Source: Ktedonobacterales bacterium (GTDB lineage Bacteria; Chloroflexota; Ktedonobacteria; Ktedonobacterales; JADMIN01). From it: a stretch of 32,000 nt of DNA. The translations under genes were made by a program, and so were the position numbers. The stretch is taken from NCBI GenBank assembly GCA_030167145.1, contig CP126532.1, positions 2,610,001-2,642,000 on the forward strand, written 5' to 3'. The stretch's first letter is position 1, and each line of letters starts with the position of its first letter. Shown here piece by piece: positions 3,614 through 32,000 of this stretch. The notes beneath the pieces were generated by a model, which searched no databases, had not been told where the DNA came from, and saw only the letters and a program-made list of their open reading frames with translations.

Positions 3614-3710
3614 AGCTCGCCACCTCCCATTTGCTGCGCCAGCGACACGCCTACTTGGCACGTGTTGCTGGCAGAATAGCAGGTGCGAGCGCGAATCGCA
3701 AGGGTTGCTG

Positions 3711-6956: not shown

Positions 6957-6972
6957 GGCGTCGCGTGATGGG

Positions 6973-7016
6973 CCGCATGCCCCAACTGTGCATGTGTGGC
7001 GCGTTGGGGCATGCGG
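6973..7016 (+). terminator. 14-bp perfect stem-loop 17 nt after the anti-sigma stop (terminator-like, no clean T tract)
   Basis: CCGCATGCCCCAAC (6973-6986) pairs perfectly with GTTGGGGCATGCGG (7003-7016) around a 16-nt loop. The downstream sequence is TGTGCGCGTGTGTATT, only partly T-rich. Confidence 0.35.
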
Positions 7017-7030
7017 TGTGCGCGTGTGTA

Positions 7031-7059
7031 TTGACAAACGCTCAGTCCTTGTGTATGCT
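7031..7059 (+). promoter_or_regulatory. Sigma-70-like promoter candidate for the 7143 gene
   Basis: TTGACA (7031-7036), a 17-nt spacer, then TATGCT (7054-7059). Located about 85 nt upstream of ATG 7143. Confidence 0.45.
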
Positions 7060-7142
7060 CCCTTCTCAAACAGGGCGGTTGTCCTGTGATGATCCGAGCG
7101 TGCGGCGCGCAGAGGTGTGCGTCGCGGAAGGGAGCAGTTCTC

Positions 7143-7475
7143 ATGATGGCGTTGTTCCGGGATTTCATGCGCTTTGTCGCGCTTGCCGTCGGCCTGGTAG
7201 CGGGTCTGCTCGCCCTGCTGATAGACCTGGGAGCGCTTGCCTTCGCGGGCAAGACACACCCTGGTTGGGGTCTGCTGATCGTGCTGATCGGCATCGCTGG
7301 GGCGCTGATCGCTCCGTTCAGCGGACGCTATGCCGCGCTGCTGATGTTGTTCTCGGCGATTGCGTTCTTCTTTGCGGTGGGCGCGGGCGCGGCTGTCAGC
7401 AGCGTGTTCTTCATCATCGCCGCCGCGCTGGCGTACTTCGACCGCAGCCGCGCGAAGGCGGTGCAGGCGGCCTGA
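7143..7475 (+). CDS. Small integral membrane protein, unknown function
   Basis: Track ORF trimmed to ATG 7143, with SD GGAAGGGAG upstream. 110 aa, almost entirely hydrophobic with 3-4 predicted spans (FVALAVGLVAGLLALLIDLGALAF, GLLIVLIGIAGALIAPF, LLMLFSAIAFFFAVGAGAAVSSVFFIIAAALAYF). Confidence 0.6.
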   Translation: MMALFRDFMRFVALAVGLVAGLLALLIDLGALAFAGKTHPGWGLLIVLIGIAGALIAPFSGRYAALLMLFSAIAFFFAVGAGAAVSSVFFIIAAALAYFDRSRAKAVQAA

Positions 7476-15546: not shown

Positions 15547-17997
15547 TTAGCGTTGTTTCTTGCGGTCGCGGACGAGGATGGCCCGTAGCTCTGCCGCCTC
15601 TGGCAGGCCGGGCTGCAAGCGCTCCACCAGGTCTAGCTCGCGGAGCGCTTCGCCATAGCGGCCAAGCTCACCATAGCAGGCGGCAAGATGCAGGCGCGCG
15701 GGGATGTTATAGGGCGAGAGCTGCACGGCTCGTTCGAGCATGGGCAGGGCGTCGGCGGGGCGGTGGCGCGTAAGGTAGAGCGAGCCGAGCGCGTAGTGTG
15801 CCGACTCGTCGCCGGGATCGCGGCGCACGGCTTCTTCCAGCGCCAGCAGCGTGTCGTCTGGCTGGCCGAGCAGTTCGTAGATGGCTGCCATGCGGGTGAA
15901 CACGCCGCCCACCGAGGGGTCTAGCTGACTGGTCGCGCGCAGTTCGGCCAGCGCCTCGCGCGCGATGGCTTGGCGCTCCTCGGTGGAGAGGGTGACGGGA
16001 TCGTCGAGGTTCTCGCCGGAGACACGGCCCATGAGGGCATCGGTGAGATCCGAATGGAGTATCGCGCGGTCCGGCTCAAGTTGCAGAGCCTCGCGCAGCC
16101 GTGCTTCGGCCTGGTTGAAGTGTCCCTGGCGCGAGAGCAGTTCCGCCAGCCCTTGCAGATGCTCGGCGGTCTTTTCTTCCTCTACGACCTGCTCTAGCGT
16201 GCTCACGGCGCGCGCCAGCCAGGCGCTTTCTTCGCCGGCATTGCCCTGTGAGGCGTATTGCTCCGCGACGAGATATTGTTCGACGCCGACCTCGAAGCGC
16301 AGTTGTGTCTTCTCGCCGAGGCGCGCGGCCATGCGTTCGAGCAGTGCGGCGGCGCGCTCGTGGTTGCCCAGCGTGCGCGCGTCGGTCAGCGCGGCGCGAT
16401 AGACTGTCTCGTCCAGCGGCAGCCTGGCGATCAGCGCGTCGCCATAGTGGAGCGAAGCGGTGAGCGCACCAGTGATGGCGATGAGCGCTTCGGCGGCCTG
16501 CTCGCTGCCGGGAGTGGGCGGAGCCTGTTGCGTGATGGTCTCGACTGCCGTATGTGATTCCTGGATGCGCTGCTGCAATTCTTCGATGGTCAGCGCCTGG
16601 CTGGTTGCGCCTTCGTCGCGTGTGCGGCTCAGCAGCCAGGTATTCAGGGTGCGGTCGCGGGCGAGGGTGTAGCCGGTCCAGTACCAATGGCGTCCGGTCT
16701 CTTTGCTGTCAATCGTCGCCATCGGTAGCTCATCAAGCTGGCCGCCGCTGGGCGCGTCGGTGAGGCAGAGCGACCAGAATGCTTCCATCTCGATACGTTC
16801 GCCGTTCGCCAGATTGCCCGCTTGCCCTGGCACCCAGAGCGCGCTGGCTCGCTTCGCCTGTTCGCGCGCCAGCGTCAGCCGCAGCCCGCTTGGGTCGGAT
16901 TCCCGCGCCCACTGGCGGCGCAAGGCAATATAGTCATCGCGCGTTTCTTTGCGGCGCATGGGGTGATCGTCCGCCAGCAGATCATAGCTCAGCCCGTAAT
17001 CGCCGAGGCTCCAGCCGCCGATCCAGTTCAGGACGGTCTCATCGGCCTCCATGCCGCCCGCGATGTACGGCCGGTCGCCTTCGCGGTTGTAGCGATCGGT
17101 TTCGTGCTGGATGGCGGATTGGGCTTCGGCATCGTCCGGTTCCGCGAGCAGCCGCGCTTCAAGCTGTGCGAGCGCGCCCTGCGTATCGTCGCCTGGCTCG
17201 GTGACGCGCCAGTCGTTCACATCCAGCGCCTCGCGCACCAGCCGCCTGGCCCGCGCCCAGGATATGGCTAGCATCTCTGCTCGTTCGCCATCCGTGGCGG
17301 TGTCGTGCTTGATGCCTTCAATGACTTCGCGATGGAAGCGCGCACGACTCATCGAATCGAGCCGCGTGGCGTCTTTCAGCCCGTCGTGCCAGAAGTCCAG
17401 CAGCAGCGCCTGGGGGTGCAGGAAGTTGGGGTCGTTGCCTTCTTGCCAGCCAAGGAGCAGCGAGACCTCGCCCTGCTCGCGCGAGCGCGTGACGTAGGCT
17501 TCGACCAGGCGTTCGCGCCAGGTGAGTGGGTGCGGCTCGGCGGTTTCGGTGGCCGCCATCGCAGCGGCAAGCATGGTGGGGGTCGCCGCAGTTGGGGTGA
17601 GAGTGGCAGGCGCGCTGGCGGGAATGAGCAATGTGGGAACGAAGCCCATCGAGCGCAGATGGATGCGCGAACGCCGCGCTTCGCGCGCTACTTCGGCGCG
17701 GGGGTCAAGCTCGCCCACGGCCTGCGAGACGTCGGCGGCGTCTTGCCCAGCGGTGGCACGCAGTTTTTCGAGCCGTGCGGCGAAGACCTGGGCCACGGGT
17801 TCCGCTGCCATCCGCACTGGGGCGAGCGCCGCCAGCAGCGCGTCGCGTCCGGCGGGGTGCGCCGCATGGAGCGATTGCGCCAGCGCGGGAACCTCGGCGA
17901 GCAGGGTGTCTACCTGCGCGGCTTGCTCCGCCGTGAGCGGGGGAAGTGTGTCGTCCTTCTGGCGCTTGCGCTGGTCTCGCTGGTCGTGTCGCCCCAT
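15547..17997 (-). CDS. Large TPR-repeat protein with uncharacterised N-terminal ~550 aa
   Basis: Track ORF trimmed to ATG 17997 (SD AGGAG 8 nt upstream), 816 aa. The C-terminal ~250 aa have TPR-like repeats (AHYALGSLYLTRHRPADALPMLERAVQLSPYNIPARLHLAACYGELGRYGEALRELDLV). Confidence 0.8.
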   Translation of the reverse strand: MGRHDQRDQRKRQKDDTLPPLTAEQAAQVDTLLAEVPALAQSLHAAHPAGRDALLAALAPVRMAAEPVAQVFAARLEKLRATAGQDAADVSQAVGELDPRAEVAREARRSRIHLRSMGFVPTLLIPASAPATLTPTAATPTMLAAAMAATETAEPHPLTWRERLVEAYVTRSREQGEVSLLLGWQEGNDPNFLHPQALLLDFWHDGLKDATRLDSMSRARFHREVIEGIKHDTATDGERAEMLAISWARARRLVREALDVNDWRVTEPGDDTQGALAQLEARLLAEPDDAEAQSAIQHETDRYNREGDRPYIAGGMEADETVLNWIGGWSLGDYGLSYDLLADDHPMRRKETRDDYIALRRQWARESDPSGLRLTLAREQAKRASALWVPGQAGNLANGERIEMEAFWSLCLTDAPSGGQLDELPMATIDSKETGRHWYWTGYTLARDRTLNTWLLSRTRDEGATSQALTIEELQQRIQESHTAVETITQQAPPTPGSEQAAEALIAITGALTASLHYGDALIARLPLDETVYRAALTDARTLGNHERAAALLERMAARLGEKTQLRFEVGVEQYLVAEQYASQGNAGEESAWLARAVSTLEQVVEEEKTAEHLQGLAELLSRQGHFNQAEARLREALQLEPDRAILHSDLTDALMGRVSGENLDDPVTLSTEERQAIAREALAELRATSQLDPSVGGVFTRMAAIYELLGQPDDTLLALEEAVRRDPGDESAHYALGSLYLTRHRPADALPMLERAVQLSPYNIPARLHLAACYGELGRYGEALRELDLVERLQPGLPEAAELRAILVRDRKKQR

Positions 17998-18248
17998 GGC
18001 GGTCGCTCCTATCTGCTTTCGTTGCCGCGAATACGGACTCACGGTGACATCGTAGCGAATTATCGCAGATTTTGGCCCGCGTAGCGCGTGCGCCCCTACA
18101 TGCGCCGCAGGCGGGCCAGCCTGCGCGGGTTTCGGAGAGCGTGGGAATCGAGAGCGTGTGCGTTGGGATGGAGGGTGGTTGGCGCAGGTGATGCCGGTGT
18201 GCTATATGTGGAGGAATGGTCTTGGATTGAATGAGGAGGAGCAGAGAG

Positions 18249-19430: not shown

Positions 19431-21509
19431 CTATTGCACGATCTCTGGGACCAGCGAGAGGTTGATGAAGAGATCGCAGCTTTGGCGCAGGATCATGGCG
19501 GCGGCGTCGTCGAAGGCGGCGATCTCGACGCGCACGCCGTGATCGGAGCAGTATTCGAGCAGCGGCAGGAAGTCGCTGTCGCCACTGACCAGCACGACGG
19601 TATCCAGCGCCTTGGCATCTACCATCCGCACGATGTCCATGCAGAGGTCGAGGTCCATATCGGCTTTTTTCGCGCCGGTAGCGAAGGTTTTGTAGTTCTT
19701 CGTGGTGACGCGATAGCCCATGCCACGGACCGGCGTGAGGAACGCCTGCTCAGCGTTCGGCTCTGGGTTGGTGGGGGCGTAGGCATGGGCGCGAATCACC
19801 CGGCGATTGCCGCGCAGGAATTCGAGCATCCGCCCGAAATCTACGTTCATGCGATGGCTGCGCGCGGAATAGACGACGTTCGCCACATCCACGAAGACGC
19901 CGACGCGCTCGGCGGAGGGGAACGCCGGGAAGGCTACGGTCATGCTTGGCCCGTGCGTCTGCTGGCGCAGTTCGGTTAGCATGCGGTCGGTCTGCTGCTG
20001 GATGGCATGCGTGACCATCGCGCCCAGTTGATTCGACGACATCGGCGGGATGTCCATCCCGCGGTCGGTGCGCGCTGGTCGCGGCAGCGAGGTGGGCGCT
20101 GGCCCGGCGACGCCGCGTGGCTGTGGGCCGAAGCCGCGCGCCATGTTCGGCTCTGGCGAGCCGAACGGGCTGACCGCTGGGCGTGGTGCCGTCTCGCGTC
20201 CAGGGCGGTTGTAGGGTGAATAGGGCTGCTCGAACGGGCCGAAGTCGCCGTATTGCTCGAAGCCGTTGCGCTGATCGCGCTCCGCAACTGGCGCGAGGGG
20301 CGCGCGCTCGCCGGTGGCGGCGGGCCAGACTGGCGCGATAGGCGGTGTTTCGGCGGCTGCTTCGGCGCTCCCATTCGCCGTGACAACATGCACTGGCCCC
20401 GCTGTAGGGCTGCCACGGCGGCGGCGGCGGCGGCGGCGCGATGGCGTCTGATCGTCTTCATCAGCTTCACCAGTTGCTTCCGCTGCCTCTTCCGTGGCTT
20501 CCACCTCGGCCTCCGCATCGGCTACCAGCTCGGCTTCGATTTCGGCTTCGCTGGCCGCGCGCATTTCGTCTTGGTCCGGCATGGGTAGCACGGTAGGGGT
20601 CGTATCGCGCAGGCCCAGCGCTGAGACGAGGTCGTCTATGGTGTTCTGCGCGCCTGCCGTCAATGGCGCACGCAGATCGCTGGCATCGAGCGCGGCGCTC
20701 GTCTCCGCGACGGAGCGCGCCAGCGCCTCTGGGGCGGTGCGGGCCACCGTGGCCTGCCATGGCTCCTCGGCCTCTTCCGGCTCAGCAGTGCCCTGCGTGG
20801 GGGCTTCGATTGGCTCAGTCACGGCGAGCGGGCCGCTCAAACGTTCGGGCCGCGCGGCTGGCGTCTGTCCGGCAACGGGAGCCGTGCCCCGCCGGTTGAA
20901 GCGGTAGCGCGTTGGGGCGGCCTCTTCCGCTGGGGCGACTTCCGTCACCACGGCGAGCGGTGGCACGAACGCGGCTGGCGTGATGGCGGCGTCGTGTTCT
21001 TCGGCGGTGGTGACGGGCACCACGCGCACCGCCTCTGGAGCGGCGGACTGCTCTTCGGGTCCGACCTCGCCCTCGGCGGCGGTGGGGGGGACGACGAGTT
21101 GCACGTCGTTCTTGCGACCGCGATGGCTCCGGCCACCACGGCTGCGCGGGCGCTTGGCCTCCGCTGGCGCGGTGGCCGCCTCGGCTTTGCCGGCCTCAGC
21201 GGTGGGCGCTTCGCTCTTCGCCGCGTCGTTTTCGATCTTCGGCGCAGCAGCTTTGGGCGTGCTGGCTTTCTTTGGCGCGCTCGTTTTCGGCGCGATGGCT
21301 TTGGGCGCGGTGTTTTTTTGCGCGGCGGTCGTGGGCGCGGTGGCCGCCACTTCGGCGGGCTGTGCCGTGAGCTGTGTCGCGGGCGCTTTGCTCGCGGCGG
21401 GCCGCCGTCGCGGGCGGGCGGGGCGGGTGGTAGCGGATTTGCCCGGCTCGGCGTTGGCGCTATGTGCGCTTTCGGCGCTGGCGTTGGGGGGAATCGTTGG
21501 TTGTGTCAT
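19431..21509 (-). CDS. NYN (LabA-like) domain protein with ~530-aa low-complexity N-terminal region
   Basis: Track ORF trimmed to ATG 21509 (SD AGGAGAAAT directly upstream), 692 aa. The C-terminal ~160 aa carry NYN motifs VGVFVDVANV and VLVSGDSDFLPL. The N-terminus is Ala/Pro/Glu/Thr-rich. It has basic patches (KRPRSRGGRSHRGRK, R8 run) and acidic patches (EAEIEAELVADAEAEVEATEEAAEATGEADEDD). Confidence 0.8.
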   Translation of the reverse strand: MTQPTIPPNASAESAHSANAEPGKSATTRPARPRRRPAASKAPATQLTAQPAEVAATAPTTAAQKNTAPKAIAPKTSAPKKASTPKAAAPKIENDAAKSEAPTAEAGKAEAATAPAEAKRPRSRGGRSHRGRKNDVQLVVPPTAAEGEVGPEEQSAAPEAVRVVPVTTAEEHDAAITPAAFVPPLAVVTEVAPAEEAAPTRYRFNRRGTAPVAGQTPAARPERLSGPLAVTEPIEAPTQGTAEPEEAEEPWQATVARTAPEALARSVAETSAALDASDLRAPLTAGAQNTIDDLVSALGLRDTTPTVLPMPDQDEMRAASEAEIEAELVADAEAEVEATEEAAEATGEADEDDQTPSRRRRRRRRGSPTAGPVHVVTANGSAEAAAETPPIAPVWPAATGERAPLAPVAERDQRNGFEQYGDFGPFEQPYSPYNRPGRETAPRPAVSPFGSPEPNMARGFGPQPRGVAGPAPTSLPRPARTDRGMDIPPMSSNQLGAMVTHAIQQQTDRMLTELRQQTHGPSMTVAFPAFPSAERVGVFVDVANVVYSARSHRMNVDFGRMLEFLRGNRRVIRAHAYAPTNPEPNAEQAFLTPVRGMGYRVTTKNYKTFATGAKKADMDLDLCMDIVRMVDAKALDTVVLVSGDSDFLPLLEYCSDHGVRVEIAAFDDAAAMILRQSCDLFINLSLVPEIVQ

Positions 21510-21842
21510 ATTTCTCCTACTTCTTAGCGGCCTTCGGGGAGCGTGGAGTGCCGGCGTGGGGAGGATGCGACGGCCAGGCGGCGCTATGCGCTTCGATTCG
21601 CGGCAACGCCGGTTCGGCGTGGTGGCTCCTTGCCTACCCGAAAGTGGTGGCATAGCCCGTCGCGAAGAAGCTGTGAATTCTTGCGCGCCAGTCCCTGGCC
21701 GTGCGTTCACATCCTCAACCCAGCGCCAAGGCCCTCGCGTGCCGCGTTGTCAGCGGGTCACGTTCCCGAAGCCTGGTAGTATGGGTTGGCCGCCGCATCA
21801 TGGGGATACGGCGCGATACGAAAACATCAGGGACAAGGTGTG

Positions 21843-22562
21843 TTAGTGTGAAGCGGAACCAGTGGTACGCCTGCCGAACTCACGTGTGGCGTCGGGTCGC
21901 GTGCCATTTGCGCCCGGCATCTCGCTCGCCGCACGCGTCTGGTCTTGCTCACCGAGACGCGGCTTGCGCGCGAGCGTGCGCCAGACGGCCACAATCCGTT
22001 GAATTGCCGTGAACGTGCTCGTCACCGCCAGAATGCCAATGACCCAGAGCAGCGAGGTGACGCTGCCAATGAGTAAGCCGACAGTCAGCAGGAGCACACG
22101 CTCTGGGCGTGCCATCAGTCCGCTTTTACACTCCAGGCCCAAGCCTTCAGCGCGGGCACGAGCATAGCTCACGATGAGCGAGCTGAGCGCCGCGATGTAG
22201 GCCAGGGCGATAAGCCAGGTGCGTTGGGCGGAGGCCACTGGCGAGAGCGCAAAGAGGATCACGCCCAGCAGCACCAGCCCTTCGGAATAGCGGTCTAGCG
22301 TCGAATCGAAGAAAGCGCCGAATGTCGTCTTCATGTTGCGCTTGCGCGCCAGAGCGCCATCTACCATATCGAAGAGACCCGCGAAGAGGAGCAATCCCCC
22401 ACCCACGCGCAGGTTTCCTGACGCGATAACCGCCGCCGCCACACCATTGAGCAGCAGACCGAGAATCGTCGCCATGTTCGGCGTCATGCCAATCGCGACG
22501 AGCGGCGCTACCACCATCTCCGCGATGCGACGCGCGTATTGTTGAATACGTGGCCCGAACAT
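21843..22562 (-). CDS. CDP-alcohol phosphatidyltransferase, probable phosphatidylinositol-phosphate synthase
   Basis: Track ORF trimmed to ATG 22562 (SD GAGGAG upstream), 239 aa. DMVDGALARKRNMKTTFGAFFDSTLDRYSE fits D-x2-DG-x2-AR-x8-G-x3-D-x3-D. The inositol assignment rests on cluster context (ino1, PimA-like GT4). Confidence 0.8.
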   Translation of the reverse strand: MFGPRIQQYARRIAEMVVAPLVAIGMTPNMATILGLLLNGVAAAVIASGNLRVGGGLLLFAGLFDMVDGALARKRNMKTTFGAFFDSTLDRYSEGLVLLGVILFALSPVASAQRTWLIALAYIAALSSLIVSYARARAEGLGLECKSGLMARPERVLLLTVGLLIGSVTSLLWVIGILAVTSTFTAIQRIVAVWRTLARKPRLGEQDQTRAASEMPGANGTRPDATREFGRRTTGSASH

Positions 22563-22589
22563 GCTTCTCCTCAATCCACCGTTCTCACT

Positions 22590-22618
22590 ATTGTACACTA
22601 TCGAACGAATATGCCCAA
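22590..22618 (-). promoter_or_regulatory. Promoter candidate for the CDP-alcohol phosphatidyltransferase gene
   Basis: On the minus strand: TTGGGC (22618-22613), a 17-nt spacer, then TACAAT (22595-22590), about 28 nt upstream of ATG 22562. The region is an AT-rich island. It holds two TTGTACA motifs (22591-22597 and 22638-22644). Confidence 0.35.
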
Positions 22619-22672
22619 TAGATACAAACAAAGCCATTTGTACAAGGCCATGGTCGTGTCGCTCCCCGGCGG

Positions 22673-22696
22673 GCGTCCACCGGACGCGCCCCTACG
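22673..22696. repeat. Dispersed hairpin repeat, copy 3 (variant)
   Basis: GCGTCCACCGGACGCGCCCCTACG has the same hairpin core as 7490-7511, a GC insertion, and TAC for TAT. Lies about 48 bp beyond the stop (22744) of the GT4 gene. Confidence 0.8.
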
Positions 22697-22743
22697 GAGA
22701 CCGACAGACCAGGCCGTTGGTTGCCAGCGTACACGCTGGTGGG

Positions 22744-23943
22744 CTATTCTGGCACGGCCAGCGGCGTGGCCCCTGGCAGGATGTAGGTGCGCTGCGCCAG
22801 CGGCGCATGCAACGCCATGATCTCCTGGTAATACGCCTCGACCTGTTCACCCACGCGCGCCCAGCTATATTCCGTCGCCCGCTCGCGTGCCGCCACGGCC
22901 ATGTCCCGTCGCGCCGCTTCATCGCCCAGCAGGTGACAGATAGCCCAGGCAAGCTTCTCGTGCTTGCGCGGGGGCACCAGCATGCCTTCGCGCTGCGTGC
23001 GGATCATGGTGCGGAACCCAGCGATATCGGAGGCCACGACGGGACGCCCAGAGGCCAGCGCTTCTAAGACGACAATGCCCTGGCTCTCGCCGCCGGTATT
23101 GGGCGCGCAGAAGATGTCTGCCGAGGCATAGAGCGCGGGCAGTTTCTCCGCCGCGATCCGCCCTGGAAAATGCACGTCGCGCCACCCCGCCTTCGCTACC
23201 AACTCCTGGAATGCTGGCCGCAATGGGCCATCGCCTGCGAAGATGAAGCGCGTGTTGGGGTAGTGCTGACGAATCGTCGGGATGGCGCGCAACAGGTATT
23301 TCGCGCCTTTGCGCTGCTCGAATCGCCCCAGGTAGAGCACGTTGAGTTTGTCGTCGTCATACTCTGGCAGCGGGGCGATATCGGGCGAGAAGCGCCCAAT
23401 ATCCACGCCGTTGGGAATGATGCGGTAGTTGCCAGGGAAGAAGCGCGAGACATAATCGCGCGCTGGCTGCGATACGGCGATGCGCCCCGAGAGCCGCCGG
23501 AAATAGCGTCCGAGAAAGGCTTTGGCCGAGACATACGCCCATTCGGATGCGGACGTGTAGCTGCGCGGGGCGTAGGCGTGGAAGGTGCCAATGTAGACCA
23601 GGCCAGGGATGTTGAGATGCAGCATGGTGAGCGATAAGGCTGACGCGAACGGCTCGTGCAGGTGCAGCACGTCGAACTGCTCACGCTCTAGCAGGGCGCG
23701 GATGCGGCCCTTGAGGTCTGGCGCGATGGCGACGCGGGCAATCGAGCCATTCATGCGCACGGGGGCAGCCCAGCCCAGCCGGTAGACCCCGTATTCCACC
23801 TGGCGCGCACGTGCGCCGGTGGCGGGGGTGAGAATGCGAACGGTATGCCCGCGGGCGCGTAGCTCTGCGGCGAGGTGCGTGATGTGATCCTGCACACCGC
23901 CGGGATAGCTCCAGTCGTAGGGCGATACCAGTCCGATTTTCAC
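22744..23943 (-). CDS. pimA: GT4 glycosyltransferase, PimA-like phosphatidylinositol mannosyltransferase
   Basis: The N-terminus MKIGLVSPYDWSYPGGVQDHITHLAAELRARGHTVRILTP closely parallels the mycobacterial PimA N-terminus as I remember it (MRIGMVCPYSFDVPGGVQSHV...). C-terminal GT-B motif GESQGIVVLEALASGRPVVASD. GTG start at 23943. Confidence 0.8.
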   Translation of the reverse strand: MKIGLVSPYDWSYPGGVQDHITHLAAELRARGHTVRILTPATGARARQVEYGVYRLGWAAPVRMNGSIARVAIAPDLKGRIRALLEREQFDVLHLHEPFASALSLTMLHLNIPGLVYIGTFHAYAPRSYTSASEWAYVSAKAFLGRYFRRLSGRIAVSQPARDYVSRFFPGNYRIIPNGVDIGRFSPDIAPLPEYDDDKLNVLYLGRFEQRKGAKYLLRAIPTIRQHYPNTRFIFAGDGPLRPAFQELVAKAGWRDVHFPGRIAAEKLPALYASADIFCAPNTGGESQGIVVLEALASGRPVVASDIAGFRTMIRTQREGMLVPPRKHEKLAWAICHLLGDEAARRDMAVAARERATEYSWARVGEQVEAYYQEIMALHAPLAQRTYILPGATPLAVPE

Positions 23944-23995
23944 TGTGTCCGTCCAGACTATTACCGGAGGCCGTCGGGGCCGTCCGGGCCACGAT

Positions 23996-24982
23996 TTAGG
24001 CGCTGCGGCTCATGCGCTGGGCCGCGCGGCGCGCGCTCCAGCCCGCGAGCAGGTTTCCACGCACTTCCGTCACCTCAAGCTCTGAGGTTGCGCCGCCGCC
24101 GTAGCGCATGCGGTGCGACACGAACGCCACGTACTCGCGCGCGTGCCAGTACGTCCCCAGCGGGAGGGTCTCGCGCCGTAGCAGCGCGGCGCGCAGGTCG
24201 TCTGCGGTACGCCCGGCGAAGGCCGTTCGCGCGCAACCGACCGCCGTTGGCGTATGCGCATCGCTGCCACCGGTCTCGGCCCAGTGATAGACGTTGCGCG
24301 CCAGGGTCATAGCGATCCGCGACGAGCCGATGCCAGCAAAGCTGCCATTCAACGTTTCGATGCCATCGGGGTGAACTTCGGGCTGGCGCAACAGCCGGTT
24401 CATCACCGAGCGCTGGACGCTATGCCGGAATACCCGATTGAACGGATGCGCGACAATCGCCAGGCCGCCCTGGGCGTGTACCTGCTCGATGCTGCGCTCG
24501 ATACTTTGATCTGGCGCGACAGGGGTTTGCAGGAATAGCGCCAGCAGATGCCCCTCGCGCGTGCTGATTTCCTCGCCGACGATCACCTCGAAGCGATAGC
24601 CGCGTTGCGCCGCCAGGTCGCGCGCGCGCAGCGCGCCCTCGATGGTATCGTGATCGGTGATCGCCAGTACGTCCAGGCGGGTGAAGCGCTGGGCGAAGTC
24701 GAGCACCTCTTCAACTGAGCCAGTGCCGTCGCTGTAGTTGGTGTGCATATGCACATCGGCCAGCCCGCGATGGCCCCTGGCTGTGCTAGCGGGCAGATGT
24801 TCTGCCAAAAGCGTTGATTCCGGCTCATCAGCCGGGCTATGAGAATGACGTTCAGCCGCTCGATCAAACTTCCACATGCGAATGATGTGCCTCGCTCTCA
24901 GGGTTCGCGTAGTAATTAAGGAATGTGCTTCCAGGTAGAGGCCCTTTGCAATGACCTGATGCCGTATCGCGTTCTCTGGCAT
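23996..24982 (-). CDS. PHP-domain metal-dependent phosphoesterase
   Basis: LADVHMHTNYSDGTGSVEEVLDFA...LAITDHDTIEG...GEEIST..GHLLALF...IVAHPF...GGSDAHT are the PHP (TrpH/YciV-like) His/Asp metal-ligand motifs. The start is ATG 24982 or ATG 24877. Confidence 0.8.
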   Translation of the reverse strand: MPENAIRHQVIAKGLYLEAHSLITTRTLRARHIIRMWKFDRAAERHSHSPADEPESTLLAEHLPASTARGHRGLADVHMHTNYSDGTGSVEEVLDFAQRFTRLDVLAITDHDTIEGALRARDLAAQRGYRFEVIVGEEISTREGHLLALFLQTPVAPDQSIERSIEQVHAQGGLAIVAHPFNRVFRHSVQRSVMNRLLRQPEVHPDGIETLNGSFAGIGSSRIAMTLARNVYHWAETGGSDAHTPTAVGCARTAFAGRTADDLRAALLRRETLPLGTYWHAREYVAFVSHRMRYGGGATSELEVTEVRGNLLAGWSARRAAQRMSRSA

Positions 24983-25091
24983 TGTATGCCGCTGGCGGAT
25001 GCATGTCCACTACAGGGGACCGTATCGCACATCCCTTTCAATCAGGCAAAGCAGCCGTTAACAGCCGGTTAAACTTTGACCTCTATCTCTT

Positions 25092-26111
25092 CTACGCCTC
25101 ACCTGCCTTTCGCGTTATGTCACTGGCAGAAGTGTCGCGCTGGTCGCTCAGTTCCCAGATTGGCGCGAGGGCTGCCACCCATTGTTCGGGGTGCGCCGCG
25201 ACCACTTCTTCCAGCCGTGTGAGGAAGATGCGCAGCGCGCGCTCGACGCGTTCAGCGGTGCGGGTGCGCTCCAGTTTCGTCGCGGTCAGTGGTCCGGCGC
25301 TGGCTGTGGCCGTCGCTGGCGCTTCCGCCGCGTTGCCTGCGGGCGCTGTGTCGGTTCCCGTCTCTAGCTCGCTGAGGTCCAGCGGAATGAAGACGCCGTG
25401 TTGTGTCTTTGGTCCGGTGCGCCACGAGTATGCCGTGAAGACGGGCGCGCCGCCGCGCAGCGCCAGGGCAATCGGCCCGGTGGGCAGCTTGGCTGGCTCT
25501 CCGAAGAACGGTGTTTCGATGCTTGCGCCCAGCACGTAGCGATCGGCTACGAACATCACCACTTCGTTGCGCTTGAGCGCGTCCAGCAGTTCGCGCAGGG
25601 AATCGCGGCTATCGGCGGGCACGATCTTCAGGCCGTGATGCTCGCGGATCTGGCAGAATAGCTCGAAGACGCGCTCCGGCTTCATGCGCTCGGCGGGGGT
25701 GATGAGCTTGTGGCCGATGGCCCCCAGCCGCGAGGCGGCGAACTCGAAGTTGCCGAAGTGGCCGGAGAGCAGAATCATGCCTTTGCCCTGCGCCATTGCC
25801 GCGTCGAAGGCATCCTGGTTCTCGATGGTCCAGCCCGCGCGCAGTTCGGCGTCGGAGAGATGCGCGCCGCGAAAGAAATCGAGGTAGTTCAGCGCCATCG
25901 TCTGAAAGACGCCGCGTGCGGCATAGTGCAGGCGGCGAGGATCGTTGGCGAGCGCGGGAATGTGACGCAGATTGCGCTCTACCCGCTCGCGCGTACCGGG
26001 GGCCAGCGCCCAGATGAGCATGCCGAGCGCGCTGGCCAGTGGCCGCGCGATTCCCATCGGCGCCAGCGGAATGATCGCGGCAGCGATACGGAACGCCCAG
26101 TATTTGGCCAT
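25092..26111 (-). CDS. LpxL/HtrB-family lipid acyltransferase, PatA-like (copy 1)
   Basis: ATG 26111 with SD AAAGGGGG. The motif LLSGHFGNFE fits H-x4-E/D of the lipid A biosynthesis acyltransferase family that includes the mycobacterial PIM acyltransferase PatA. Later FFGEPAKLPTGPIALALRGGAPV. Confidence 0.8.
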   Translation of the reverse strand: MAKYWAFRIAAAIIPLAPMGIARPLASALGMLIWALAPGTRERVERNLRHIPALANDPRRLHYAARGVFQTMALNYLDFFRGAHLSDAELRAGWTIENQDAFDAAMAQGKGMILLSGHFGNFEFAASRLGAIGHKLITPAERMKPERVFELFCQIREHHGLKIVPADSRDSLRELLDALKRNEVVMFVADRYVLGASIETPFFGEPAKLPTGPIALALRGGAPVFTAYSWRTGPKTQHGVFIPLDLSELETGTDTAPAGNAAEAPATATASAGPLTATKLERTRTAERVERALRIFLTRLEEVVAAHPEQWVAALAPIWELSDQRDTSASDITRKAGEA

Positions 26112-26167
26112 CGGCTGCGCCCCCTTTCGTGCGTGCTGCGGTTACTGCCTGCGGTTACTGCCTGCAG

Positions 26168-27130
26168 CTACGGCGCTGGCGCTTCGGCTCGCGCCGTCAC
26201 GGTTTCGCCGTGTGGTGTAGGCGCGCTGGCGTCGCTCTCCGCGCTGCGCGGTGGCTCCGGCCAGAACGCGCGGAACATCGCCCACTGGTCGGGCCGCTCG
26301 CGAATCTGCGCCTCCAAAGCGGTGAACATGCGCTGCGTGAGCGCGGTGGTATCGGCGCGTTTATCGCCAGTGACTTCGGGGTAGATGATCGGCCCCGCGC
26401 CCAGATAATAGGTAGACGAATACTGCTCATCATAGATGCAGTAGCCCGGCAGGATGGCTGCGCCAGACTTGAGCGCGATCTGTGCGATGCCGCCTGGCAC
26501 CCAGCACTCGCGGCCAAAGAAGGTGATCGGCACGCCCTCGCCCACGGGCAGTGGACGGTCTACGGCGACGGCGACGACGCCGTTTTGCTGCAAGACGCGC
26601 AGAATCTGGCGTGGGGTTTTCTCGATGTGCAGGATCTCCAGGCCCAGGTCGCGTCGTTGCTCTTGCCACATCGCATCCATACGCGGATCGTCGAGGGATT
26701 CGACGATCACGTGCGTGGGACAATGGCTGGCGACGGCAACCGCGGCGATATCAAAGGCGCCGAAGTGAGTCGAGACGACGATCAGCCCTTTGCCCTTGGC
26801 GCGCGCCTCGTCTATCCGCGCGAAGGCGCTCGGTGGTGGCGTGATATCGCGGATGCGCGCGAGCAGCTCGTCGCGAGTGGAGTTGGGCATGTAGACGAAA
26901 TCGGAGATGTAGCGCCCGAAGTTGCGCCACGAGATACGCGCCAGTTGCCGCGCTTTGGGGTCGCGGGGCGTGGTGCCGAGGATCTGCGCCATGTTGGCGA
27001 TGGTCACCCGGCGTTTGGAGACCCAGCCATAGTAGATCAGCACGGTGACTGACCCGGCCAGCGCCAGGCGCAGTGGTCGCGGTGTCTTGCCCGCAAGCCA
27101 ACTCGCGAAACGAATCAAATAATAGACCAT
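26168..27130 (-). CDS. LpxL/HtrB-family lipid acyltransferase, PatA-like (copy 2)
   Basis: VVSTHFGAFD fits H-x4-D. FFGRECWVPGGIAQIALKSGAAILP parallels copy 1. Same architecture and length as the adjacent paralogue. Confidence 0.8.
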   Translation of the reverse strand: MVYYLIRFASWLAGKTPRPLRLALAGSVTVLIYYGWVSKRRVTIANMAQILGTTPRDPKARQLARISWRNFGRYISDFVYMPNSTRDELLARIRDITPPPSAFARIDEARAKGKGLIVVSTHFGAFDIAAVAVASHCPTHVIVESLDDPRMDAMWQEQRRDLGLEILHIEKTPRQILRVLQQNGVVAVAVDRPLPVGEGVPITFFGRECWVPGGIAQIALKSGAAILPGYCIYDEQYSSTYYLGAGPIIYPEVTGDKRADTTALTQRMFTALEAQIRERPDQWAMFRAFWPEPPRSAESDASAPTPHGETVTARAEAPAP

Positions 27131-27232
27131 CCGGCGTTTCCCATCCAGCCAAGGTAGCCAATGTCCCCTCCCGTTTGGATACGAGTGATCCGCGCGGGAA
27201 GGGATGATTGGTGTCAGCGTGACGCCGTTGCG

Positions 27233-28405
27233 TTACGCCTTGGGCAGATCGGCGACACTCGCGGGTTCAGCGTAGGTGTGGCCGTTGGCCTTGGCGGCCC
27301 TTTCGTCCTTCGCGCCCTGGCCGCTGTGGCCGAACTCGCGGATGAAGTCTTCGGTCATCAGGCGGGCCTGCTCATCAGTGTACTGGATCGCCGGTGACTT
27401 CATGAAGTACGCCGACGGCCCCAGCAGCGCGCCGCCGATGCCTGCGTCCTTCGCCAGCTTGGCGCAGCGCAGCGCGTCAATCACCACGCCGGCGGAGTTG
27501 GGCGAATCCCAGACTTCGAGCTTCAGTTCGAGGTTCAGCGGCACATCGCCGAAGGTGCGGCCTTCCAGGCGGATGAAGGCGAACTTGCGGTCGGTGAGCC
27601 AGGGCACATAGTCGCTCGGCCCGACATGCACGTTCTCTTTGCCCAGGTCATAGTCGAGCTGGCTGGTGACGGCGTTGGTCTTCGAGATCTTCTTGGATTC
27701 GAGCCGCTCGCGCTCCAGCATGTTCATGAAGTCGGTGTTGCCGCCGACATTGAGCTGATACGTGCGCTCCAGCTTGACGCCGCGCTCGCGGAAGAGGCGG
27801 GCGAGACTGCGATGGACGATGGTCGCGCCGACCTGGCTCTTGATGTCGTCGCCGACAATCGGCAGGTTCGCTTCTTCGAAGCGCTTGCGCCAGAAATCCT
27901 CGCGGCCAATGAACACCGGAATGCAGTTGACGAAGCCGCAGCCAGCCTGAAGCACCTGCTCGACATACCACTTGGTGGCCGTCTCGCTGCCCACGGGCAG
28001 GTAGTTGATGACCACATCGGTGCCGGTGTCTTTGAGCACATGGACGATATCCGCCGTCGCGCCGGGGGCTTTGGTGATGACCTGCGACAGATACTTGCCG
28101 ATGCCGTCGTGGGTCATGCCACGCACCACCGGCACGTGGGCCTTGGGCACATCCGTGAACTTGTAGGTGTTGTTCTGCCCGGAGAAGATCGCCTCGCTCA
28201 GGTCTTTGCCGACCTTATCGGCGTCTACGTCAATGGCTGCGGAGAACTCGATGTCGTTGATGTGGTAGCCACCCAGGTTGATGTGCATCAGCCCCGGAAT
28301 CATATCGGTTTCGGCGGCGTTCTTGTAGTATTCCACACCCTGCACCAGCGACGAGGCGCAGTTGCCCACGCCGACGATGGCGACCCGCACTTTGTTCTTA
28401 CCCAA
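27233..28405 (-). CDS. ino1: myo-Inositol-1-phosphate synthase
   Basis: [26 protein letters not shown]...PGLMH...GIGKY... closely matches bacterial/archaeal MIPS (mycobacterial Ino1 has [22 protein letters not shown]). TTG start at 28405 with SD AGGAGGG 9 nt upstream. Confidence 0.92.
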
Positions 28406-28952: not shown

Positions 28953-29019
28953 GCGTCCTCGCTTTCGGCTCGCGCACGCCGTTATGCGCCAGCCATCTAG
29001 GTGGTCACATATGTAGCGC

Positions 29020-29060
29020 CGCTATATAAATGGGCGCTTATAAATGTCCGCTTATGTATG
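29020..29060 (-). promoter_or_regulatory. Three direct 12-13-nt repeats in the AT-rich region upstream of the ArsR-family gene (possible operator/promoter)
   Basis: CGCTATATAAATG (29020-29032), CGCTTATAAATG (29035-29046) and CGCTTATGTATG (29049-29060) sit at 14-15-bp spacing, 70-110 bp upstream of ATG 28952. The function is inferred from position only. Confidence 0.3.
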
Positions 29061-29280
29061 TACCGAAAAACGAGGGGAATGTCAAGGGCAAAATGCGCGG
29101 CTCACAAAATTGTGTGGTGTTGCGCGCGGTGGCGGGTTGGGTGTGATAGCAAGTTCCCAGCATGAATGCCGGGGATAATCCCGTATGCGAATATGCTATG
29201 CTGAGGCGAAGCCAAGCAATGTTTACACTCGGCAGGCGTGTACGACAACGCGCATTTCACCTTTGTAATGACCTTCGCGA

Positions 29281-29730
29281 TCAAGGGGTGATCAGATCCC
29301 CTAGCACGACTACGGTGAGGCCAGGGACACGGCGAAATATTGGGTCATTGGTGACAAGGAGGGCACAGCCTTCGACCAGCGCGGTTGCGGCATGAATGGC
29401 GTCGGGTGTTTTGAGCGCGGTGGTCGCACGTAACTGCGCCGCCTGTTCGAGCACGGCCTCTGATATCGGACTGAGCTTCACGTCAGAGGCGCCTTGGAGG
29501 AGCGTCCGATAATCTGCTTCGAGTTGGGTATCTCCACTCTTGAGCGGCCCGACGAGTGTTTCCAGTAGCGAGAGGCCACTCGTCACGATACGATGTGTGT
29601 TGTTCTTCGCGCTCTGCCAAATGGGAAGAAGCAGATCATGGTAGGGCGGGATGTGCTCTACGCTATAGATGATGCTGTTCGTATCGAGGTAGATGGCACT
29701 GGCGAGCGCGGGCAGTGTCAGCGATCCCAC
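29281..29730 (-). CDS. vapC: VapC-type PIN-domain toxin
   Basis: PIN acidic residues lie in IYLDTNSIIY, LLETLVG, TPDAIHAATAL and LVTNDPIF. No ATG. GTG 29730 has SD GAGGAG 8 nt upstream and overlaps the antitoxin stop by 13 nt. Confidence 0.8.
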   Translation of the reverse strand: MGSLTLPALASAIYLDTNSIIYSVEHIPPYHDLLLPIWQSAKNNTHRIVTSGLSLLETLVGPLKSGDTQLEADYRTLLQGASDVKLSPISEAVLEQAAQLRATTALKTPDAIHAATALVEGCALLVTNDPIFRRVPGLTVVVLGDLITP

Positions 29731-29957
29731 GAATCGCGCTCCTCGCGGATGTAGGCGTCCACTTCCTCGGCGGTTTTGAAGAGCCGCTGGCCAGGCATGT
29801 TGGCGAGCAGGTCCAGCGCATGGGGCTTGTGGGCTGGCGCGGCCTCTTGCGTTTCGATGGTGACGGTCACTCGCTGCCCTGGCGTCAGATCGGGCACATT
29901 GACTGCGATGGTGCCATCTGGCTGGACGATGGCGTTGGCATGAATGATGGTTGCCAT
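29718..29957 (-). CDS. VapB-like antitoxin (AbrB/SpoVT-like N-terminus)
   Basis: Track ORF trimmed to ATG 29957 (SD GGAAGGAGAAAAG upstream), 79 aa. MATIIHANAIVQPDGTIAVNVPDLTPGQRVTVTIE is a swapped-hairpin-like N-terminus. The tail is TAEEVDAYIREERDSWDR. Overlaps vapC. Confidence 0.7.
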   Translation of the reverse strand: MATIIHANAIVQPDGTIAVNVPDLTPGQRVTVTIETQEAAPAHKPHALDLLANMPGQRLFKTAEEVDAYIREERDSWDR

Positions 29958-29996
29958 GCGCTTTTCTCCTTCCTGTGTGACCGATTCTCGCTGAAC

Positions 29997-30059
29997 GCAT
30001 GTGCGCCCGCCGCTGATCTCATGCCGTAGCGTATCACATGGCGGCGCGGGGGCAGACGC
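29997..30059 (-). repeat. Copy B of the ~60-bp intergenic element shared with 2433-2493
   Basis: See copy A. Lies between the STAND gene stop (30064) and the VapB-like start (29957), 40-102 bp upstream of the latter. Confidence 0.85.
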
Positions 30060-30063
30060 CCGA

Positions 30064-32000
30064 CTATGGCGCGACGCCCAGCCGCCGCAGCGCCCCGCGC
30101 ACATCTTCGGCGTCGGGGGATTCGACCTGCACGAAGCGGCGCAGCGCCTCGCGGTAGTGCGCGATGGCGCCGCTGCGGTTGCGGGCATCTTCGTCGAGCA
30201 CAGCAAGAAACCGATGACAATAGCCGATCCCCTGAATGTCGCTCAGGCGCTCGCAGATGCTGAGGCTTTGCTCGATCATGGCGCTGCCTCGCTCTGGCTC
30301 GCCTTGCTTGCGAGCCAGGAATACGCCGAAATTGCGTAGCTCATTGGATTCAGCGGCGGGATCATTGAGTTGCCGCGCTAACTCAATGGCACGCTCGTAC
30401 ATCGTTCGCGCTTCGCTGAGGCGACCCTCTTGCGAGTTCAGCACCGCCAGTTCATGCACCTCGGCACGCTCCGCCGCCGGGTCGCCCAACTGTTGGGCCA
30501 GCGCCAGCGCCCGCGCGTAGCCCGCCCGCGCCTCGGCCAGCCGTCCAGTCTTGCTGTCGAGCACCGCCAGTTCATGCACCTCGGCACGCTCCGCCGCCGG
30601 GTCGCCCAACTGTTGGGCCAGCGCCAGCGCCCGCGCGTAGCCCGCCCGCGCCTCGGCCAGCCGTCCGGTTTGCGCGTCGAGCACCGCCAGTTCATGCACC
30701 TCGGCACGCTCCGCCGCCGGGTCGCCCAACTGTTGGGCCAGCGCCAGCGCCCGCGCGTAGCCCGCCCGCGCCTCGGCCAGCCGTCCGGTTTGCGCGTCGA
30801 GCACCGCCAGGGCATGCACCTCGGCTTGCTCCGCCGCCGGGTCGCCCAACTGTTGGGCCAGCGCCAGCGCCCGCGCGTAGCCCGCCCGCGCCTCGGCCAG
30901 CCGTCCGGTTTGCGCGTCGAGCACCGCCAGCCCATGCACCTCGGCTTGCTCCGCCGCCGGGTCGCCCAACTGTTGGGCCAGCGCCAGCGCCCGCGCGAAG
31001 CCCGCCCGCGCCTCGGCCAGCCGTCCAGTCTTGCTGTCGAGCACCGCCAGCCCATGCACCTCGGCTTGCTCCGCCGCCGGGTCGCCCAACTGTTGGGCCA
31101 GCGCCAGCGCCCGCGCGTAGCCCGCCCGCGCCTCGGCCAGCCGTCCAGTCTTGCTGTCGAGCACCGCCAGCCCATGCACCTCGGCTTGCTCCGCCGCCGG
31201 GTCGCCCAACTGTTGGGCCAGCGCCAGCGCCCGCGCGTAGCCCGCCCGCGCCTCGGCCAGCCGGCCTAATCGCCCTAGAGTTATCGCGCGACTATGCTCC
31301 ATATATTGGACTTCCGCCTTATCGTCCAATGATTGTGCCGCTTCCAGCGCCAGCGTATCTATGTGGAGTTCCTCGTCTCGTCGTCCTCGTGTGTCCCATG
31401 CTCGTCCCAAGGTCTTCGCCAGTGCTAGCACGTCGCGGTGGCGGGCGTGGTCGTGTGCCCAGGTGAGCGCGCCCATCAGGCCGGGCGCTTCGGCTTCGAG
31501 CGCGTCCATGCCGTCGTAGCCGGGATGCGCGCGGGCGTAGGCGAGCCAGTAGGCGATGAGGGTGTCGCCGAGACGGTCAGCGGTGGGGGTGGGGAGTTGG
31601 CGCAGGCGGGCGGCGGCGTACTCGCGCAGCAGTGGATGCAGGCGCAGGCGCGGGCCGGTGGCGCTGGCGAGCGGCTCGACCAAGCGCAGGGTGACGAGCG
31701 CGGCGACGGCGGCTTCGGCGTCAGCGGCAGTAGTGGGCACGGGCGGCGACGGGTCTGGCTGGTCCGGCTGGCCTGGTATGTCCAGGGTGGCGAGGGCGAG
31801 CGCGGCGGCGCGGGGGAAGCTGGGGCCGCTGATGAGCGCGAGACCGGCGAAGAGGCGCTGCTGCGCAGGAGTGAGCACATCCCAGGAGCGGTCGAAGCGC
31901 GAGACGATGGCCTTGCGGGGATTGCTCTTGAAGGCGGCGGCGTTGATGCCGTCGCGGGCATGCTGTGCGCGGATGTCGGGCAGGGAGAGACCTTGCACAC
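30064..32000 (-). CDS. NB-ARC/STAND (NLR-like) protein, C-terminal part: winged-helix/linker plus TPR-like repeat sensor (N-terminus outside window)
   Basis: The ORF is open to the window edge. SRFDRSWDVLTPAQQRLFAGLALISGPSFPRAAA, LVTLRLVEP and RLHPLLREYAA match the winged-helix end of bacterial NB-ARC NTPases. About 11 units of 40-aa TPR-like repeats follow. Confidence 0.8.
   Translation of the reverse strand, partial: VQGLSLPDIRAQHARDGINAAAFKSNPRKAIVSRFDRSWDVLTPAQQRLFAGLALISGPSFPRAAALALATLDIPGQPDQPDPSPPVPTTAADAEAAVAALVTLRLVEPLASATGPRLRLHPLLREYAAARLRQLPTPTADRLGDTLIAYWLAYARAHPGYDGMDALEAEAPGLMGALTWAHDHARHRDVLALAKTLGRAWDTRGRRDEELHIDTLALEAAQSLDDKAEVQYMEHSRAITLGRLGRLAEARAGYARALALAQQLGDPAAEQAEVHGLAVLDSKTGRLAEARAGYARALALAQQLGDPAAEQAEVHGLAVLDSKTGRLAEARAGFARALALAQQLGDPAAEQAEVHGLAVLDAQTGRLAEARAGYARALALAQQLGDPAAEQAEVHALAVLDAQTGRLAEARAGYARALALAQQLGDPAAERAEVHELAVLDAQTGRLAEARAGYARALALAQQLGDPAAERAEVHELAVLDSKTGRLAEARAGYARALALAQQLGDPAAERAEVHELAVLNSQEGRLSEARTMYERAIELARQLNDPAAESNELRNFGVFLARKQGEPERGSAMIEQSLSICERLSDIQGIGYCHRFLAVLDEDARNRSGAIAHYREALRRFVQVESPDAEDVRGALRRLGVAP
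30421..31260 (-). repeat. Seven tandem 120-bp units, nearly identical, inside the STAND gene
   Basis: Period exactly 120 bp, visible as alternate 60-nt lines repeating. Bases 30441-31260 are identical between units except at four small codon clusters. Diverged units flank the array (30301-30420 and 31261-31380). Confidence 0.95.

Follow-up and report, generated by a model that had tools for sequence, protein, structure and literature searches.

What kind of gene carries seven almost identical repeats in a bacterial genome, and why do these repeats differ at only a few codons? The question is raised by the far end of a 32,000-nucleotide stretch of DNA from a Ktedonobacterales bacterium of the Chloroflexota (GenBank assembly GCA_030167145.1, contig CP126532.1, positions 2,610,001 to 2,642,000), which we refer to as the window. 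Here, a minus-strand frame of 644 amino acids, followed by a stop codon at 30064-30066, remains open to the window edge beyond 32000 and encodes the C-terminal part of a protein. We find that this protein is probably a STAND (signal transduction ATPase with numerous domains) protein of the NB-ARC class, whose core of tetratricopeptide repeats (TPRs) was recently homogenized and whose residual variation falls at predicted groove positions.

The repeats form a single, uninterrupted array. Tandem Repeats Finder places it at 30440-31263 (period 120, 6.9 copies, 97% matches, 0% indels, score 1453), and an invariant 39-mer occurs exactly seven times at a spacing of 120 bp, where none is expected (100 shuffles). 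Near-identical 120-bp units had been described in a first-pass annotation of this DNA, which took the identical stretch to run from 30441 to 31260. The array is real, but the identity reaches 31266, so that it already starts in the helix-B half of the preceding cap unit. Compared base by base in plus-strand columns, the units between 30441 and 31263 vary at four clusters alone, the same four codon clusters that had been annotated; the Tyr/Phe base, previously put at 30968, is at 30998, the only place where the column 30518 +120n varies. The SKT/AQT cassette includes a synonymous Thr change (ACT/ACC). With units counted from G245, the haplotypes read SKT/G/Q/Y, SKT/G/Q/Y, AQT/G/Q/F, AQT/A/Q/Y, AQT/E/R/Y, and SKT/E/R/Y, followed by a diverging unit, exactly the order first reported. 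This seventh unit (amino acids 485-524) diverges in its final residues (NSQE). The six core units share 35-39 of 40 amino acids and 109-119 of 120 nucleotides over 240 amino acids, and the seventh shares 105-114 of 120 nucleotides. The 11 variable nucleotides are confined to 6 codons (P ~1e-4, simulation). The array thus exceeds the identity between units by which highly internally conserved (HIC) repeats have been defined (>85% across >=100 amino acids; Dyrka et al. 2014, PMC4986451).

An array of this kind could be partly a product of assembly, in which case the repeat would be real and the number and order of its units unreliable. The longest exact internal duplicate is 145 bp, which is above common k-mers and close to the length of an Illumina read, and units 1 and 2 are one base apart. 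Short-read assemblers are documented to shorten conserved arrays of NOD-like receptors (NLRs; NOD, nucleotide-binding oligomerization domain) (PMC11761791), and frameshifts are present in related arrays of long-read metagenome-assembled genomes (MAGs; relatives L001, L018, and P0052). However, the array stays in frame over 824 bp without indels and has properly diverged cap units on either side, and the same 120-bp architecture, with 3-8 units, is repeated in related genes. We consider the explanation unlikely, although it retains some weight, and it touches the unit count rather than the nature of the gene. Unit number and order are thus provisional, while the nature of the gene is unaffected.

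The frameshifts in the related arrays, all on long-read-style contigs, interrupt L018 at 4203-6771, L001 at 4932-7447, and P0052 at residues ~600-706. The C-terminal 'GAARGGAGGIRAGVEAGRGVGRPLRP...' of P0052 repeats with a period of 40 amino acids, as expected for a 120-bp unit read in another frame. These interruptions are either sequencing errors in repeats or real pseudogenization. A warning for MAG surveys also follows: arrays of this type exceed k-mer length, so assemblies will probably break, shorten, or frameshift them.

The repeats are TPRs, as the first-pass annotation had proposed. Pfam TPR_12 matches at 95.5 bits (cut-off 30.1), with further matches to TPR_2, TPR_10, and TPR_MalT, and the AlphaFold2 (AF2) model consists of regular helix hairpins with a predicted local distance difference test (pLDDT) score of at least 95 from approximately residue 210 to the end. 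The protein therefore has the C-terminal repeat domain of NLR architecture, here of the TPR type, on the joint evidence of Pfam, AF2, and Foldseek. The best sequence and fold matches are the TPRs of LGN/Pins (GPSM2), which share the 40-residue period (E 4e-13; Foldseek TM score 0.77-0.87). LGN binds extended peptides in its inner concave channel. It differs from the window protein in being a eukaryotic polarity scaffold with divergent repeats and no NTPase, and the likeness is structural only.

Where, then, do the variable residues lie on this fold? We numbered unit columns from the proline that opens helix A, with the TPR position equal to the column minus 4. This register is based on Pfam TPR_2, which aligns amino acids 516-542 to profile positions 6-32; with it, canonical positions 7, 8, 20, 24, and 27 hold the invariant L, A, A, Y/F, and A. 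The variable residues are then helix-A positions 1, 6, 12, and 13, together with the buried position 24. In the AF2 model, columns 1-17 are inside helix A (267-283 and equivalents; pLDDT of at least 95). Magliery and Regan found that the hypervariable concave face of TPRs comprises positions 2, 5, 9, 12, and 13 (and 33 and 34), and ligand contacts in Hop involve positions 2, 5, 6, 9, 12, and 13 (PMC1261162). Three of the four variable helix-A sites (positions 6, 12, and 13) belong to this published contact set. A helical wheel alone was not decisive, and the concave assignment combines the Pfam register with the published contact positions. On this basis, the variable residues are expected to lie on or beside the concave ligand-contact face. 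The concave placement anticipated in the first-pass annotation is thus predicted for positions 6, 12, and 13, but not for position 1, which is adjacent, or for the Tyr/Phe position 24, which is buried. Other members of the family vary at similar places: in the within-protein variability of 16 other proteins, window columns 5, 10, 16, and 17 rank 4, 5, 7, and 3 of 40 (permutation P ~0.0008).

The DNA of the units indicates how they came to be so alike. Where two of the six core units share a residue, they nearly always share its codon too (34/35 to 39/39 cases), while in the homologues L006, L007, L016, L008, L009, and L012 same-residue codons are only ~50-75% identical. Near-perfect codon identity between units points to recent duplication or conversion at the DNA level, not to selection at the protein level. 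At the nucleotide level, units match at 113-114/120 positions within the window array and within that of L018, versus 87-94/120 when the arrays of the window, L018, and L019 are compared with one another. In the window protein, L006, L007, and P0003, units have their closest counterparts within the same protein, whereas in the L009-L015 subfamily they are nearest to their positional orthologues. One branch of the family thus shows concerted evolution. Homogenization does not reach the terminal cap units, which stay conserved by position.

The variants in the array occur in contiguous blocks (Q in four units, then R in three; G in three, A in one, E in three), as would result from duplication of neighbors. 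A neutral explanation would be a recent tandem expansion by slippage or unequal crossing-over, in which the differences are leftovers of two or three founder units at fast-evolving surface positions; in all relatives, helix A is indeed under less constraint than the rest of the unit, and the number of units is too small for a selection test. We nevertheless judge neutral expansion to be improbable. All four combinations of Q/R and SKT/AQT occur (four gametes), which implies re-assortment between sites 30 nucleotides apart and goes beyond serial duplication. Together with the near-perfect codon identity between units, these combinations bear out the recombinational mosaic proposed in the first-pass annotation. 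Moreover, the variable codons each have 2-3 differing bases, while ~108 other positions are identical, so the variants must be much older than the homogenization, which they survived.

The same columns, the SK/AQ codon cassette, and the Tyr/Phe dimorphism also recur in independently homogenized arrays elsewhere, which again argues against neutral expansion. Variation in the L018 array (120 bp x 3.8, 93%) falls at columns 5, 10, 16, and 28 and includes the Tyr/Phe dimorphism of the window, while in the L019 array (x 2.8, 89%) it falls at columns 2, 6, 16, and 17. P0047 varies at columns 5, 6, 10, 16, and 17, and P0052 at columns 10, 14, and 17. In L019 (6845-7185), SK and AQ are written AGC AAG and GCG CAG; in the window (30547-31155), they are written AGC AAG and GCG CAA. 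Such near-shared codons across genomes suggest either an old cassette dimorphism kept across species or convergence. When the TPR part was searched against a protein collection, no allele exceeded 67% identity, and the repeat 39-mer had no exact match in the genome or metagenome contig collections. What the window gene adds is the near-perfect uniformity of its array, a set of four or five variable columns that recur across lineages, and the codon-level sharing of SK/AQ with one relative (L019).

We also considered whether the variable codons were written by targeted mutagenesis, for example by a diversity-generating retroelement (DGR). The sets GAA/GCC/GGG and CAA/CGT can each be derived from an adenine-containing template codon. 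However, the differences between SKT and AQT also involve G, C, and T positions (AGCAAGACT versus GCGCAAACC), and no reverse transcriptase was found among the larger window open reading frames (ORFs) scanned with Pfam. The presence of the same cassettes in another genome, that of L019, favors inheritance over de novo mutagenesis. We reject DGR-type mutagenesis on these three grounds and regard its probability as close to nil.

No NTPase is encoded inside the window, where the frame runs off the edge, and the STAND assignment was therefore tested through relatives. As a query, we used the 245 non-repeat residues that precede the repeats. It matched full-length and partial homologues from Ktedonobacterales and Chloroflexia MAGs only. 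In an exhaustive representative library, it gave 236 matches at E <=1e-3. The best of these, P0011 (955 amino acids), is 74% identical. Amino acids 1-135 of the window protein align to P0011 from residue 432, directly after GGLPLAIELTAAYAG; the window protein begins ten residues past this motif (GLPL) of the relatives. Pfam NB-ARC (PF00931) scores above cut-off in 29 of 32 full-length relatives, and at 24-53 bits (cut-off 23.5) in five loci checked singly. The NTPase core of the relatives contains the motifs GMGGVGKT (Walker A) and LLALDN (Walker B).

A profile of the relatives' NOD regions, compared with the Protein Data Bank (PDB), matches AfsR (1e-23), Apaf-1 (4e-12), and plant NLRs (Roq1, NRC, Sr35, and ZAR1-like). 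Its alignment to AfsR passes through two motifs of the window protein, SWDVLTPAQQRLFAGLALISGPSFP in the winged-helix core and RLRLHPLLREYAA of MHD type, which correspond to the winged-helix motifs quoted in the first-pass annotation and now read as RNBS-D-like and MHD-like elements. We take SWDVLTPAQQRLFAGLALISGPSFP to be equivalent to plant RNBS-D. A winged-helix segment with an MHD-type His thus follows GLPL, with 'RLRLHPLLREYA' aligned to AfsR 'RYRFHDLVRLYA'. The R, L, H, and P of RLRLHPLLREYAA are invariant in one alignment (A4) and at least 90% conserved in another (A3). AF2 is poor over this part (pLDDT 41-60) and the predicted fold rests on the alignment, which supports the reading of amino acids 1-135 as a winged helix. 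Through its relatives, the NB-ARC STAND identity first proposed for the gene is upheld, and we consider it likely, within the explanation as a whole, that the gene encodes an NLR-like STAND NTPase.

AfsR, a Streptomyces protein of SARP-NB-ARC-TPR architecture (PDB 8k60 and 8jke), is the nearest solved NOD, with similarity across the P-loop, Walker B, GLPL, winged helix, and HD motif, and it also has a C-terminal TPR domain. AfsR is a transcription activator with its own N-terminal SARP DNA-binding domain; relatives of the window gene show no such domain. The window gene could similarly encode a non-immune STAND signal transducer, like AfsR or MalT, whose TPRs sense an endogenous metabolite or partner in transcription or other housekeeping, with repeat homogeneity incidental. 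In addition to the nearest solved NOD, there are weak NCBIfam and Pfam matches to the TPR regions of AfsR and MalT, a largely housekeeping neighborhood, and a lack of matching PADLOC defense models that would fit such a role. However, the protein, whose N-terminus the window does not include, reaches 43.4 bits with the NCBIfam AfsR model against a cut-off of 1430. The 25 Pfam families found most often in the 32 full-length relatives include no DNA-binding family (SARP/BTAD, LuxR, or HTH), and the nearest relative, P0011, sits amid transposases, a KAP NTPase, and a phage terminase. The N-termini of the relatives also form an assortment typical of conflict and cell-death NLRs. We accordingly give little credence to a housekeeping transducer.

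These N-termini vary on a common NB-ARC-TPR chassis. DUF4062 is found in P0011, the closest relative, and in four others; TIR_2 in five relatives, among them L006 at 99.6 bits; and SIR2_2 in one. A two-transmembrane segment is found in L005, L007, L008, P0013-16, and L001, and a zinc ribbon in P0018 and P0031, while L009-L015 begin with ~130 residues that carry no annotation. Combinatorial N-termini are the pattern described for NLR-like conflict or cell-death proteins, a role that may by analogy extend to this family. In PADLOC-DB 2.0, the window protein and four full-length relatives match no Avs or bNACHT model. The sole PADLOC match of the window protein is to a generic model, PDLC01169 'TPR', and TIR models match the relative L006. 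The family thus lies outside the catalogued Avs and bNACHT systems.

How does this gene compare with known NLRs? Among fungal NLRs, highly conserved repeats of the TPR, ANK, and WD types vary on the concave face (Dyrka et al. 2014, PMC4986451). The Podospora NB-ARC/TPR proteins (e.g., Pa_2_10340) and the HET-E/D NWD family resemble the window gene and its relatives in combining NB-ARC and TPRs with variable N-terminal domains, in units that are >85% identical over >100 amino acids with few variable positions in helix A (on the concave face in the fungal proteins, and predicted to be so here), and in their evidence of concerted evolution and repeat reshuffling. They differ in host, since the window gene is bacterial with relatives in Chloroflexota, and in repeat type: the window unit is 40 amino acids and LGN/Pins-like, whereas fungal TPRs have been homology-modeled on kinesin light chain 2. 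For the fungal proteins, repeat-number polymorphism and positive selection have been demonstrated, and unequal recombination has been shown to make new surfaces in WD, ANK, and TPR NLRs (PMC4986451). Highly conserved repeat arrays are a proposed engine of rapid specificity change in these NLRs.

TPR and WD repeats that are 80-90% identical internally occur in bacterial NLRs as well, and unequal recombination has been suggested for them (Dyrka et al. 2020, bioRxiv 10.1101/2020.01.06.895854). The conserved-repeat hallmark cited in the first-pass annotation is therefore described for both fungal and some bacterial NLRs. The NB-ARC/TPR and NACHT/WD proteins of filamentous Actinobacteria, Cyanobacteria, and Chloroflexi share the architecture and kind of host of the window gene, and Ktedonobacter is named among them. 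That study focused on N-terminal amyloid (BASS) motifs paired with Bell-domain genes, whereas relatives of the window gene bear TIR, DUF4062, SIR2, or transmembrane N-termini; near-identical arrays were only mentioned there, and the window array is more uniform, at 92-100% amino-acid identity among its six core units. The kind of gene is thus already known from fungal and bacterial NLRs, and the window gene is a very clean added member. Avs proteins (PMC13581612) likewise pair a STAND NTPase with a sensor of alpha-helical repeats; on binding a phage protein, this sensor sets off oligomerization of the effector. Their effectors (TIR and SIR2) overlap with those of the window relatives. Their sensors, however, envelop conserved phage folds by shape complementarity, and near-identical arrays are not mentioned in that account.

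We propose the following mechanism. The seven central units owe their near identity in DNA to recent tandem duplication and/or gene conversion. If the protein works in the manner of Apaf-1, plant NLRs, Avs proteins, and AfsR, the TPR groove might bind a protein or peptide ligand, which would free the NB-ARC module from an ADP-locked, MHD-stabilized off state. The released protein would then oligomerize and activate its N-terminal domain (TIR, DUF4062, SIR2, a two-transmembrane segment, or a zinc ribbon in the relatives). The DNA identity of the units could promote unequal recombination that changes unit number and re-sorts old cassettes (SK/AQ, Q/R, and G/A/E), and new groove surfaces might thus arise quickly. 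Ligand binding, the sensor role, an immune or cell-death role, the rate of shuffling, and the dynamics of diversification are all attributed here by analogy.

Several observations weigh against an NLR-like sensor with a recombining TPR groove. The P-loop NTPase and N-terminal domain of the gene itself fall outside the window, and the missing Avs and bNACHT matches in PADLOC count in the same direction. Apart from one PIN protein, the window neighborhood is mostly housekeeping, with no obvious defense island. TPR position 1 adjoins the published contact set without being a member of it, and the concave exposure of the variable sites was read from TPR numbering, not from coordinates. Helix A is generally more variable than helix B, which makes the coincidence of variable columns weaker when measured against a helix-A background. 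With only 6-7 units, the array is too small for a codon-model test of positive selection (dN/dS). Finally, the 145-bp exact duplicate means that the copy number could be wrong if the assembly is short-read.

Beyond this gene, we tentatively suggest, as a possibility that falls short of being likely, that recombination between near-identical 120-bp units may continually rebuild the TPR sensors of a family of NLR-like receptors in filamentous Ktedonobacteria, re-sorting a small set of ancient, cross-species cassettes of contact residues (SK/AQ, Q/R, G/A/E, and Y/F). If so, the family would be a bacterial counterpart of the repeat-shuffling repertoire of fungal HET/NWD proteins, and recognition specificity could differ between close strains or even within a colony. 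The window gene is an unusually clean bacterial example, with a unit frozen apart from four predicted groove positions that also vary in relatives from other genomes. Such a gene allows a direct test of whether repeat shuffling tunes ligand recognition in a prokaryotic NLR.

The features of the gene are collected in Table 1. The C-terminal consensus, '...AIAHYREALRRFEQVQSPDAEDVR..LR.LG', is common to the window protein and its homologues. An antisense plus-strand ORF of 279 amino acids (30430-31269) spans the whole array, and gene callers could mis-annotate it. We reject this ORF as a gene, since it is a by-product of a GC-rich, stop-free repeat, and the domain and homology evidence comes entirely from the minus strand.

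Table 1. Coordinates in the window of the putative NB-ARC-TPR gene and its parts (aa, amino acids of the 644-residue frame).
Feature	Position	Strand	Evidence or variants
NB-ARC-TPR (NLR-like STAND) gene, putative, 3' part	30064..32000	-	Open translation, Pfam TPR families, NB-ARC homologues; 5' end past window
Predicted winged-helix (ARC2-like) end of NOD, aa 1-135	31594..31998	-	Alignment to P0001/P0011 and others; NOD profile versus AfsR
SWDVLTPAQQRLFAGLALISGPSFP, RNBS-D-like winged-helix motif, aa 38-62	31813..31887	-	Aligned to AfsR 'atFelgYgqLepaqaraFrlLgLadGpdis'
RLRLHPLLREYAA, MHD-like motif, aa 117-129	31612..31650	-	Aligned to AfsR 'RYRFHDLVRLYAR'; His nearly invariant
Helical linker and degenerate first TPR-like hairpins, aa 136-244	31267..31593	-	Invariant alignment columns; AF2 helices 137-243
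GMDALEAE motif, family-invariant, within linker	31486-31521	-	Invariant columns of alignment A1
Highly internally conserved array, 6.9 x 120 bp = seven 40-aa TPR units, aa 245-524	30440..31263	-	
Variable codon, column 5 = TPR position 1	30466-30468 +120n (30466..31188)	-	CAA (Q) in units 1-4, CGT (R) in units 5-7; plus-strand bases 30466-67
Variable codon, column 10 = TPR position 6	30451-30453 +120n (30451..31173)	-	GGG (G) x3, GCC (A), GAA (E) x3; plus-strand bases 30451-52
Variable cassette, columns 16-18 = TPR positions 12-14	30547-30555 +120n (30547..31155)	-	AGC AAG ACT (SKT) versus GCG CAA ACC (AQT)
Single TTC (F) for TAC (Y), column 28 = buried TPR position 24	30997..30999	-	Variable base 30998
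Three diverged C-terminal TPR-like units and cap, aa 525-644	30067..30426	-	Position-conserved across relatives

The PIN-domain protein (225 amino acids, 29281-29958, minus strand) is encoded on the same strand as the NLR-like gene, 105 bp beyond its downstream end, and the start of the PIN protein at 29958 has a strong GGAGG-like ribosome-binding site. The PIN domain comprises residues 89-213; the 88-residue N-terminal extension has no Pfam match and could be a fused antitoxin-like segment. The exact protein has no match in the public protein collection. A scan of 29200-30200 for promoters and terminators found nothing above chance. A 14-bp tandem repeat (2.6 copies, 29018-29055) occupies an intergenic region of lower G+C (0.57 for 29001-30000).

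The locus of P0011 (DUF4062-NB-ARC-TPR; L017, JGI 3300045419, on a 5.07-Mb contig) contains IS-type (insertion sequence) transposases, a KAP-family NTPase, and a phage terminase (3668-7884 and 17017-18333). This neighborhood is mobile and variable, unlike that of the window, and the two loci show no synteny. P0011 is therefore unusable as an ortholog with which to compare earlier and later states of the array. In another relative, L002 (5474-7071; also L003 and L004), a degraded copy of the family lies beside the tuf/ribosomal-protein operon, where a 170-residue ORF with a two-transmembrane N-terminus is followed by a 356-residue ORF that lacks most of NB-ARC and keeps the MHD-like motif and TPRs. 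This arrangement is present in two assemblies and one Logan contig. In L019, a 77-bp tandem repeat (3.9 copies, 90%, 4526-4818) occupies intergenic DNA between a TPR gene and the NB-ARC gene fragment.

Elsewhere in the window, a phosphatidylinositol/PIM-like (phosphatidylinositol mannoside) cluster at 21843-28405 encodes a CDP-alcohol phosphatidyltransferase, a GT4 glycosyltransferase, a PHP-domain protein, two lipid-A-type acyltransferases, and a myo-inositol-1-phosphate synthase. Clusters of this kind are usually tied to Actinobacteria. Two NYN-domain proteins (predicted RNases) of 759 amino acids (19431-21710, minus strand) and 548 amino acids (13656-15302, minus strand) are encoded less than 8 kb apart, and the remainder of each has no Pfam match. 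A second, unrelated TPR protein (831 amino acids, 15547-18042, minus strand) has ordinary 34-residue TPRs (TPR_19, TPR_1, and TPR_2) and no internal DNA repeat. The product of 2546-3661 (minus strand) matches the virginiamycin B lyase family at 362 bits.

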